A DNA stretch of 64,000 bases from Candidatus Nomurabacteria bacterium (GTDB taxonomy: Bacteria > Patescibacteriota > Minisyncoccia > Phycocordibacterales > UBA9973). Shown one piece after another: positions 21,420-23,140 of this stretch. The stretch covers positions 2,134-66,133 of the forward strand of contig CALRAE010000002.1 in assembly GCA_943350445.1 (NCBI GenBank). The letters are read 5' to 3'. The notes under the pieces are model-generated. The model worked only from the letters and a program-made list of their open reading frames with translations, did not search any database and was not told the origin of the DNA. Position numbers and translations under genes: made by a program. Within the stretch, counting starts at the first letter, position 1, and each line of letters opens with the position of its first letter.

Positions 21420-21453
21420 GGGAAAAAACCTGCAGGGAAACAAAAAACCACAC

Positions 21454-21693
21454 ATGAAAAAACTCAAAACTGTCGGTTATGGGCTTATTACAGCCTCGTT
21501 GCTGGTTGTGGCGCCGGGTTGCGCAACTTCCAGAAGTGCCAGTGGCACCAGTGCGGAGAAGGTTCAAACTGGCCTTGCGTTCAAGATCAGGGAGAATGGA
21601 TTCTGGCCGGGTCTGTATGAGTGGTTGACCACCACTCCCGAGAGGCAGTCTTCCTACTACTCAGGCAGCGAGCATGATCGTCGAAGGCCTTAA
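21454..21693 (+). CDS. Small GC-rich ORF with a lipoprotein-like N-terminus (LLVVAPGC)
   Basis: 79-aa ORF inside the GC-rich island. Signal-peptide-like N-terminus with Cys. Followed by hairpin GGCGTC..GACGCC and a T-tract. Confidence 0.3.
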   Translation: MKKLKTVGYGLITASLLVVAPGCATSRSASGTSAEKVQTGLAFKIRENGFWPGLYEWLTTTPERQSSYYSGSEHDRRRP

Positions 21694-22044
21694 CAGCAAC
21701 GGACATTGTGGGTCCGTGGAATGTAATACGAATTGTTTTTTGTTGAATCGAAAGGAGGCGTCAGTGTACCGAAAAGGTGACCACGACGCCTTTTCTGTTT
21801 ATGGGCCAAATTCTTGACAAATCACTCACCATAGTGTAGTCTCCACAGAGAGTTTTTTATATCGTTCTTCGAAAATCTTGTAGAAAAAAGTATTAAAAAA
21901 GACCCCAGAAGGGCCTTTTTTGTTTTTTATGGGAGGTTGTGTCGGTAGACAGGAAATCAAAATTTGAGTTCCTGTTGGCCGGCATAACCTCTTAACGTTA
22001 GAGAATGCTTGTCAATGCAGTCAACGCAGTAAAACCATAAAGTC

Positions 22045-23028
22045 ATGAAACAACTAGTTAGCCTCCTCGGTGCCCATCAAGTATGCGCATTCACCGGCAT
22101 CATTGGTCTCCCGCAGTTCTGGCTCCAGGCCAGGCTTGCAGGTGCAAAGCTCCTCTCTGCGAATCACCCTGAGTTAGTTATCGGCATCACTGGCCGGATC
22201 CTTCAGGAGTTCGAACTTGACGCGGGCAAGGTCAGCAAGTTTATCGCGACACAACCTACGTGTCTCCAGTTCGCCAGGTGGTTCAAGATCGAGACCGGCT
22301 CGCTAAATCGTGCCCAGATCGGTGCTTTCAACGCCCAGATCATGGCTCTCGAGGATTCGGACGAAAATTCCGCCCTTGACACCATCAGGACCTTCGGGCT
22401 GGACAACCAAAAAGACCAAGTGGCTCGCTCGCTCGTTTTCACCAACATGCTCCGCAATTGGAACGAGTTCCATGCTGCTCTCATTGCTGGCCAGATCGCA
22501 CCGGGTGTGGGTGGTATCCCGCTCATCGAATCGAGCTATGTGTGTCCCTTCACCGGCATCAAGCACATCATGCGCGCCTACCTGAAGGGCATTCTCGCCG
22601 CCACAGGAATCCTGAACAAGGATTATCCGGCGCAGGGACCCGGCTTTGACAAGATGCTCTGCAAACTCCTCGGCATCACCTCGGATCAGTTCATCGCTCT
22701 GCTCGCGGATGTTCCTGAATACTCTGAGTTTGTCCCGCGGTTGCAGCCTCGCATCGCCCAGGTCTCTGGGCGGGCGATCAGCCAGTTCAATGGGGCGATC
22801 GAGGCCTACCAGCATAATGTTGAGATCTCTCGCCGTATCCTCATGGGTTTCGGGTTTAAGAACAACGGCTCCTTCCCGCTTGCCGCGATTGCCCTGAACC
22901 CACTCGAGGACATGACAGCTATCCACGAGCAATTGGTCACTCTCGCGGCCATCACGGCTCGCGACGCAGAAGTCGCCAAGAGTGGCGCCAAGTCTGTCAA
23001 GTCCGCAGGCAAGATCGTTGTGGCCTAA
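22045..23028 (+). CDS. Hypothetical protein (327 aa) encoded in a compositionally foreign high-GC segment
   Basis: Only long ORF with plausible amino-acid composition in a ~57% GC stretch. Overlapping minus-strand ORFs are R/D/E-rich antisense artefacts. No family recognised. Confidence 0.5.
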   Translation: MKQLVSLLGAHQVCAFTGIIGLPQFWLQARLAGAKLLSANHPELVIGITGRILQEFELDAGKVSKFIATQPTCLQFARWFKIETGSLNRAQIGAFNAQIMALEDSDENSALDTIRTFGLDNQKDQVARSLVFTNMLRNWNEFHAALIAGQIAPGVGGIPLIESSYVCPFTGIKHIMRAYLKGILAATGILNKDYPAQGPGFDKMLCKLLGITSDQFIALLADVPEYSEFVPRLQPRIAQVSGRAISQFNGAIEAYQHNVEISRRILMGFGFKNNGSFPLAAIALNPLEDMTAIHEQLVTLAAITARDAEVAKSGAKSVKSAGKIVVA

Positions 23029-23103
23029 GCCTCGAGCTTCTACAAGAAATTCAATTGAGTCTTTTACGACTCCCCAACATCTTGGGTAATTTATCAAACG
23101 AGA

Positions 23104-23140
23104 ATGGCGCCGCACGGGAAACTGTCGGCGCCATTACTAT
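23104..23140 (+). terminator. Hairpin (9-bp perfect stem ATGGCGCCG/CGGCGCCAT) downstream of the island ORF
   Basis: Inverted repeat read directly. The trailing T-tract is weak. Confidence 0.35.

Follow-up and report, generated by a model that had tools for sequence, protein, structure and literature searches.

We describe a GC-rich islet located between the genes rnr and rpsP in a 64,000-nucleotide stretch of a Candidatus Nomurabacteria genome (contig CALRAE010000002.1, positions 2,134 to 66,133), hereafter the window, in whose coordinates all positions are given. The islet is approximately 1.87 kb long (21286..23150, + strand) and contains two ORFs (open reading frames): a lipoprotein-like ORF of 79 aa at 21454..21693 (+), which belongs to module A, and an ORF of 327 aa at 22045..23028 (+), referred to as ORF327, which belongs to module B. 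Both ORFs exist as the initial annotation had described them. The product of ORF327 consists of two tandem DUF5069 domains (~aa 1–150 and ~aa 158–300) and a Lys-rich disordered tail (aa 302–327). The islet is an insertion of foreign composition and mosaic ancestry, probably acquired horizontally.

The contrast in composition with a genome of ~38% GC, on which the initial annotation was based, is borne out (GC 0.50–0.59 versus 0.38, and 0.70 versus 0.34 at third codon positions, GC3). In 200-nt windows, GC content is 0.495–0.565 over positions 21400–21800, 0.38–0.39 over 21700–22000, and 0.515–0.585 over 22000–23100, with values of 0.28–0.43 in the flanks. In 300-nt windows, it remains at or above 0.48 throughout 21401–23150, i.e., over 1.75 kb, and the peak of 0.59 is approximately 4 standard deviations (sd) above the mean for the rest of the window (0.380, sd 0.050). 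ORF327 also departs from the other ORFs of the window in GC3: GC at codon positions 1, 2, and 3 is 0.59, 0.41, and 0.70, and the mean GC3 of the 47 long ORFs of the window is 0.339 ± 0.094, with only two outliers, of which ORF327 is one. The non-coding parts of the islet resemble the host in being AT-rich, and their promoters are of the host type.

The host affiliation of the locus follows from rnr, which matches metagenome-assembled genomes of Candidatus Nomurabacteria and Paceibacterota at up to 83%. For comparison, 80 related loci from GTDB were used, in which 58 species show both rnr and rpsP in divergent orientation. The distance between the two genes is only 56–150 bp in 32 of these 58 species, and therefore the islet is an insertion. 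In the island-free relatives, the sequence ...AATATAACATAAA... runs straight into TTGCCTTTTT..ATGTTAAGCT-ATG(rpsP) within these 56–150 bp, and when the intergenic regions of these relatives are aligned, the insert falls exactly between the promoter of rnr (...AATATAACATAAA...) and that of rpsP (TTGCCTTTTTTATAATTTATGTTAAACT-N6-ATG). The earlier placement of the islet in the divergent rnr/rpsP promoter region is thus confirmed, and its extent, previously given as 21420–23140, has to be widened to about 21286–23150. The sequence shared with other species according to blastn is limited to 23150–23187. The islet is absent from the slot in all 80 related loci, and neither ORF327 nor the small ORF has a homologue in any of them, so that presence of the same gene at this locus in all relatives, which the initial annotation had named as a possible outcome, is not what is found.

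No integrase or transposase was found among the 15 genes within ±10 kb of the islet, no tRNA near it, and no target-site duplication at its ends. The only end-to-end inverted repeat (21271–21282/23167–23178) is the pair of divergent host promoters, which is also present in island-free relatives, and transposon-like terminal repeats were rejected on this basis. The rnr and rpsP promoters (21262–21285 and 23152–23191 in the window; loci L003–L031) share the motif TTTATGTTA(A/T)A(C/T)T of the extended −10 type, conserved across Nomurabacteria. The start codons of both genes lie only ~6–9 nt past the −10 element, so that the mRNAs may be leaderless or nearly so.

In this group, the slot between rnr and rpsP acts as a hot spot where lineages have cargo of their own: it holds 199–3485 bp of cargo in 26 of the 58 related species, and this cargo is unrelated from species to species, encoding mostly small secreted, lipoprotein, or Gly/Tyr/Arg-rich low-complexity proteins. 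Several of the inserts are GC-rich, with GC3 of 0.56–0.78 versus 0.36–0.51 for their own rnr. Low-complexity secreted proteins are encoded at the slot in L027 (insert 4668–5992), L026 (659–1651), L046, and L017; the slot proteins include one of 354 aa made of ~30 LTPADY(x)(x)LA(D/S)Y repeats, an Ile/Pro/Gly/Tyr-rich one of 294 aa, and others with GGYGGRGG-type tails. Further along the same operon, between a KH-domain gene and trmD, the window carries a secreted-looking ORF of 256 aa (24156–24926, +; GC3 0.46) that has no Pfam match and no homologue in the 80 related loci; the KH-domain gene and trmD are adjacent in several of these loci. This looks like another variable slot.

The initial annotation had offered a chimeric assembly as an alternative, in which GC-rich DNA of another organism would have been joined into a Nomurabacteria contig. 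The abrupt compositional steps at both edges are what such a join would produce. However, an identical 327-aa protein with the same neighbours is found on six contigs of 10–200 kb from NCBI, ENA, and Logan. In addition, a contig from a different sample (L089) is 99.9% identical to the window over 21465–23221 and therefore spans the right junction. Homologous islets also occupy this slot on two further metagenomic contigs, L002 and L083, with the order rnr, lipoprotein gene, spacer, ORF on L002, and penicillin-binding protein gene, rnr, ORF, rpsP on L083. For these reasons, the islet is not a misassembly but a real segment of DNA. The AT-rich non-coding parts with their host-type promoters also speak against a chimera, and this explanation is effectively refuted.

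The many antisense ORFs across the islet had been ascribed to its high GC content, and comparison of the window with L002 agrees with this: substitutions at codon positions 1, 2, and 3 of the sense frame of ORF327 number 57/32/97, and omega (the ratio of nonsynonymous to synonymous change) is 0.27 in this frame and 0.39–1.9 in the other five. The antisense ORFs are by-products of the high GC. A GC-rich stretch in an AT-rich genome is often the mark of an RNA gene, and a long antisense ORF of 270 aa is open at 22303..23115 (−), so that a structured non-coding RNA or an antisense protein might be the true product. Against this, the substitution pattern and the lowest omega fall in the sense frame, this frame has significant DUF5069 homology and a confidently predicted fold, Rfam gives no match, and the antisense ORF has no match in Pfam. 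We regard such a product as extremely improbable.

The initial annotation had considered ORF327 unrecognisable and a candidate for a genuinely novel gene. This does not hold, since the protein passes the Pfam threshold for DUF5069 (PF16798) with 30.0 bits against a gathering cut-off of 27 (E-value 6.5e-7, residues 170–257), and the second allele, P0010 from L083, scores 30.4 bits. HMMER, run exhaustively against 1.84 billion representatives, returned 102 relatives. Both halves of ORF327 (~17–150 and ~158–300) match single-domain members, residues 158–297 matching, e.g., P0003 and P0016, and residues 17–147 matching P0103, and two-domain proteins of ~300 aa align with it end to end. ORF327 is thus a divergent tandem member of a known, uncharacterised family.

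The family-invariant positions L22, P23, W26, P159, R177, K181, Y194, D202, and N285 are kept in ORF327. We looked for the family motif G-P-L-G-x3-L-P-R-x-W-x-K ... G-(F/L)-D in each repeat. The second repeat retains R177, K181, Y194, and D202, and the first reads GLPQFWLQ, in which the near-invariant R and K of LPRxWxK and the aspartate of GLD are gone; domain 1 therefore looks degenerate. The Lys-rich C-terminal tail RDAEVAKSGAKSVKSAGKIVVA (22948..23025, +) is kept across otherwise unrelated alleles, with identity in the allele alignment rising from ~0.4 to 0.8 at ~22950. The pattern common to the cassette alleles, RDAEV[AS]K.G.K..K..GK..V.A, is absent from canonical members.

The AlphaFold (AF2) model of ORF327 has a mean predicted local distance difference test score (pLDDT) of 83 and a predicted template modelling score of 0.79 with a 66-sequence family alignment (pLDDT 31 with a 2-sequence alignment). 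The predicted protein is soluble and all-alpha, in disagreement with its earlier description as hydrophobic, and has neither a signal peptide nor a transmembrane segment, which would place it in the cytoplasm. The last 25 residues are predicted to be disordered, with a pLDDT of 41 for the tail. Each repeat of the model resembles PDB entry 3OMD, the only structural match. PDB sequence searches with the ORF327 protein, the family profile, and a single-domain member gave no match, and neither did a search of the model against viral folds (BFVD). NCBIfam, PADLOC, and PHROGs contain no family for either islet protein, and the 79-aa protein has none in Pfam.

Canonical DUF5069 members are hypothetical proteins of Dehalococcoidia, Latescibacteria, Poribacteria, and Gemmatimonadetes, and in four sampled contexts (54–69% GC) their genes match the local composition. 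The canonical tandem loci (L086, L088, L093, and L094) have recurrent neighbours: heparinase II/III-like lyases (Hepar_II_III), dihydrodipicolinate synthase (DHDPS)-family proteins, RraA-like and HpcH/HpaI aldolases, and GFO/IDH/MocA and other NAD-dependent oxidoreductases. These neighbours suggest that the family is linked to acidic-glycan or sugar-acid catabolism. None of them is found beside ORF327 in the window. Other DUF5069 genes form GC-rich patches in contigs of lower GC content, at 1802–2638 in L091/L092 (0.57 versus 0.45) and at 2774–3262 in L084 (0.60 versus 0.48), which hints at repeated transfer of the family into AT-richer genomes. Literature searches on DUF5069/PF16798 found no papers, and those on Nomurabacteria, horizontal gene transfer, and GC content found nothing relevant.

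Module A appears to be a self-contained expression unit. A putative promoter A, read from the sequence and conserved in L002, consists of TTGATA, a 17-nt spacer, and TG-n-TATACC (TGgTATACC, extended −10) at 21287..21315 (+). It is followed by a hairpin at 21367..21425 (+; ΔG −29.1 kcal/mol, z-score −8.6) in the predicted 5′ untranslated region (UTR) of the lipoprotein gene, and the alignment shows that L002 keeps this hairpin with one double change from G-C to A-U. The hairpins noted previously at both sides of the island are real and very stable; the left one, however, lies inside the islet, in this 5′ UTR, and does not mark a boundary. Downstream of the gene lies a predicted intrinsic terminator followed by a U-run (21753..21800, +; hairpin 21753–21794, ΔG −21.1 kcal/mol, z −3.2), which is near-identical in L002; a terminator scan matched 21771–21795 plus the T-run.

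The 79-aa product begins with a putative signal peptide and a lipobox-like A-P-G-C motif (MKKLKTVGYGLITASLLVVAPG-C-ATS), with a Lys-containing n-region, a hydrophobic core, and a conserved G-C-A-T, the −3 position not being the canonical Leu. The signal and the G-C-A-T motif recur in the L002 homologue and in the cargo lipoproteins of L010, L037, and L006. The L002 homologue has 67 aa, is 37% identical, and has the same ...RRP end; synonymous divergence (pS) between the two is 0.88, i.e., saturated, and nonsynonymous divergence (pN) is 0.41. L083 has no module A and keeps a remnant of the −35 element of promoter A, which suggests that the module was deleted there. The second GC3 outlier of the window, an ORF of 145/162 aa (51130–51700, −; GC3 0.73) with an N-terminal membrane or signal segment and no Pfam family, has the same architecture as the islet modules: its own TTGACT-17-TATAAT promoter and a 5′ UTR hairpin (51599–51664, −34 kcal/mol). 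It adjoins tRNA-Tyr (51802–51887).

Module B begins with a putative promoter B (TTGACA, 17 nt, TAGTCT; 21814..21842, +), whose −35 element shows no change between the window, L002, and L083, and whose −10 element is TAGTAT in L083. It precedes a conserved structured leader of ~200 nt (21849..22044, +), which contains GTTCTTCGAAAATCTTGTAGAAAAA and is 80–97% identical among the three sequences up to 21990, although the ORFs differ. The leader comprises a small hairpin, a weak terminator-like hairpin at 21894–21921, flanked by A/U, and a 24-bp hairpin at 21930–21994 (ΔG −41.5 kcal/mol, z −9.6); the last two and the terminator at 21753–21794 are the structured elements of the AT-richer spacer. We do not claim the hairpin at 21894–21921 as an attenuator, as it is weak (z −1.5). 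The long hairpin is retained by RNAalifold, with five one-sided G-U-compatible changes in an alignment of three sequences only, and these changes favour a plus-strand RNA structure. Rfam gave no family for the leader, only sub-threshold miRNA-like hairpin matches (24 bits versus gathering scores of 60–100). A hairpin with a weak U-run, probably the terminator of ORF327, follows the gene at 23101..23138 (+; ΔG −24.8 kcal/mol, z −6.1) and is 93–95% conserved in L083. Exact-pattern scans did not find the leader in metagenome or viral contigs or the 3′ hairpin in metagenome contigs.

Two hairpins outside the islet should also be mentioned: a perfect 18-bp one downstream of the KH-domain gene (23998–24039), which has weak sub-threshold Rfam matches and is probably a bidirectional terminator, and one of −39 kcal/mol directly after the L32 (rpmF) gene (12707–12772).

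The three islets differ sharply in how well their parts are conserved. The non-coding scaffold (promoter, leader, and 3′ flank), together with the coding sequence of the tail, is 80–97% identical among the window, L002, and L083, and the ORF body 30–50%. Identity collapses at the start codon (~22040) and recovers ~26 codons before the stop (~22950), and L002 and L083 share 97% identity as far as the ATG. The L002 allele of ORF327 has 77% amino acid identity to that of the window; the L083 allele is also exactly 327 aa long, yet only 28–31% identical. Without the tail, P0001 and P0010 come out at ranks 209/221 and 216/222 in each other's lists of family matches, and therefore their two bodies stem from different DUF5069 sub-lineages. 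A profile built from the three alleles retrieved nothing but these three. No template-like direct repeat of a diversity-generating retroelement was found in 21200–23250, the divergence covers the whole ORF, and reverse transcriptase was not searched for.

The histories of host and cassette conflict. The rnr gene pairs L083 with L002 (93% amino acid identity, pS 0.55), and the DUF5069 gene pairs the window with L002 (77%), with L083 at 30%. Among the three cassette lineages, the pS of rnr is 0.55–0.72, close to or at saturation, and in blocks of 60 codons it is 0.58–0.86. In contrast, pS is 0.38 for ORF327 between the window and L002, and for rpsP between the window and L083 it is 0.37 over codons 1–65 and 0.85 over codons 66–106; the first 65 codons give 0.62–0.75 between the window and other species. 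Values for the islet and the 5′ half of rpsP so far below the backbone fit an exchange between lineages by homologous recombination. The simplest reading is that the islet has been exchanged between Nomurabacteria lineages through the scaffold and the core flanks, with one tract ending inside rpsP; the islet itself is younger than the backbone. The earlier description of the islet as recently acquired foreign DNA thus stands as regards foreign composition and insertion, and "recent" needs qualification, because three lineages share the islet despite near-saturated synonymous sites in rnr.

These data bear on the possibility that the locus is native and vertically inherited, its GC-richness being held by amino acid composition, mRNA selection, or GC-biased repair at a recombination-prone site. 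The cassette does occupy the same slot in three lineages with rnr pS of 0.55–0.72, unrelated cargo at this slot in other species is GC-rich too, and GC3 has not ameliorated. The difference in GC3 (0.70 versus 0.34), however, is too large for amino acid content alone, GC at second codon positions being only 0.41; the cassette is missing from all 80 relatives; pS of the islet (0.37–0.38) is about half that of the backbone; the DUF5069 gene tree conflicts with the rnr tree; and the family otherwise occurs in genomes of higher GC (54–69% in the four sampled contexts) outside the candidate phyla radiation (CPR). We consider a native locus rather improbable.

A repeat motif, TCTTGTAGAA, is located within 21871..21896 (unstranded), and its inverted copies at 21358–21378 and 23038–23052 bracket module A and ORF327. 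The repeat search gave inverted pairs of 21 nt at 86% and 15 nt at 87%, with TCTTGTAGAA at 21876–21885 and TTCTACAAGA at 23038–23047. In 1.04 Mb of related DNA, the 10-mer of this motif occurs only in the islets and at one other site. Together with the long imperfect palindrome ahead of each ORF and the combination of hypervariable ORFs with a conserved non-coding scaffold, the three copies would suit a site-specific system, integron-like or invertible (phase-variable), in which the hairpins and the inverted TCTTGTAGAA/TTCTACAAGA are the sites that load or flip the ORFs. The inverted motif, however, is statistically near chance: by a rough calculation, ~2 perfect 10-bp inverted pairs are expected in 2 kb, and several others of 10–11 bp are present. 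The allele breakpoints (~22040 and ~22950) lie off the repeats (21876 and 23038), no recombinase or integrase was found within ±10 kb, and all four sequenced copies have one orientation, so that the two orientations of an inverton were not seen. The G-U-compatible changes argue for an RNA structure on the plus strand. As for attC sites, the nearest matches to RYYYAAC/GTTRRRY fail in the 21930–22010 hairpin, the only one inspected, by eye and without a systematic scan, and this sub-hairpin covaries instead of being conserved. We judge a site-specific system to be less probable still than a native locus.

Taken together, the data make it probable that the islet is a horizontally acquired accessory element at a hot-spot slot, composed of two expression modules and exchanged by homologous recombination through the conserved scaffold and the core flanks. 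According to this model, foreign DNA was inserted between the back-to-back promoters of rnr and rpsP in a Candidatus Nomurabacteria genome. Module A would contribute a tiny, fast-evolving lipoprotein gene with its own promoter, a long 5′ UTR hairpin, and an intrinsic terminator, and module B a divergent tandem DUF5069 gene with its own TTGACA promoter, a structured leader of ~200 nt, and a 3′ hairpin. No mobility gene would be involved, the islet being kept and passed on through the non-coding scaffold and the flanking core genes, and the outcome would be idiomorph-like DUF5069 alleles of equal length, tail, and flanks, with bodies only 28–31% identical.

Several observations weigh against this model. 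A database of 5.8 billion proteins contains only three cassette-bearing lineages, two of which are represented by short Logan contigs (L002 and L083), and L002 may be a strain-chimeric join at the conserved leader. The GC3 of all three alleles is still 0.70–0.73 despite their substantial divergence, in genomes with a GC3 of ~0.34, which a simple scheme of one acquisition followed by amelioration does not predict. The donor lineage is not identifiable, the best relative outside the cassettes being 40% identical over one domain. Promoters and terminators were assigned at the level of consensus, and the "terminator" in the leader is weak (z −1.5).

With regard to function, our best guess, made with low confidence, is that ORF327 is a ligand-binding or enzyme-accessory protein from a family seen elsewhere in acidic-glycan or sugar-acid catabolic loci. 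This guess is drawn from the contexts of distant relatives, and the N-terminal domain lacks the near-invariant R, K, and D. A broader view would make the rnr/rpsP slot a strain-specificity locus, in which a conserved scaffold of promoters, long 5′ UTR hairpins, terminators, and the sequence coding for the Lys-rich tail expresses hyper-divergent ORFs that can replace one another (those of the lipoprotein and of the DUF5069 idiomorphs), with polymorphism held by frequency-dependent selection and shuffled by natural transformation from a GC-rich CPR accessory pool. The ORFs may then be, e.g., immunity, host-interaction, or phage-related determinants. We regard this view as unlikely.

If the description holds, the islet is a compact and well-delimited case in which ultra-small CPR genomes acquire and exchange accessory genes independently of the machinery of mobile elements; it combines an intergenic hot spot at a fixed position, modules that are self-contained in their expression, and replacement of alleles via the conserved flanks. 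With it, the DUF5069 family also reaches into Patescibacteria, where it takes an unusual form: the first repeat is degenerate and a Lys-rich tail is present. The value of the result is mainly descriptive and evolutionary; no new kind of system or function is revealed.

One further compositional feature of the window concerns a 968-aa ORF at 45894–48800 (+), whose GC at codon positions 1, 2, and 3 is 0.50/0.51/0.31. The unusually high second-position value suggests a low-complexity protein rich in Ala, Gly, Ser, Thr, and Pro, and the ORF accounts for the mild rise in GC at 47.3–48.8 kb.

Compared with canonical tandem DUF5069 proteins (~300 aa; Dehalococcoidia, Latescibacteria, Poribacteria, Gemmatimonadetes, and many metagenomic lineages), ORF327 agrees in length class and in the architecture of two repeats. 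It differs in being only 22–30% identical to them, in the loss of the R/K and GLD aspartate of domain 1, in the added Lys-rich tail of ~25 aa, and in its location in a CPR genome away from sugar-acid or glycan catabolic genes. The structural match 3OMD, a single-domain protein of Leptospirillum rubarum solved by structural genomics, is 16% identical to ORF327, beyond the reach of sequence profiles, and since it is itself uncharacterised, the match adds no mechanism.

With integron cassettes and invertons, the islet shares short ORF units with imperfect palindromes and inverted repeats that bracket the ORFs; unlike them, it has no integrase or invertase found nearby, a putative promoter for each ORF, and breakpoints off the repeats. 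Another parallel is provided by recombination hot spots between core genes, where idiomorph or cassette loci are exchanged through flanking homology, as in the streptococcal capsule loci. As in these, the position of the islet is fixed, the cargo varies between relatives without mobility genes, sequence identity drops abruptly at the edges of the ORFs, and the apparent recombination tract reaches into rpsP. In contrast to them, the islet is very small, with two genes in 1.9 kb; what is conserved in it is a regulatory, non-coding scaffold that contains long hairpins; it resides in a CPR bacterium whose genome is reduced; and the alleles keep their foreign GC3. Small hot-spot islets such as this one are known in principle; ORF327 is a new, divergent member of the DUF5069 family, and its alleles have an interesting idiomorph-like structure.

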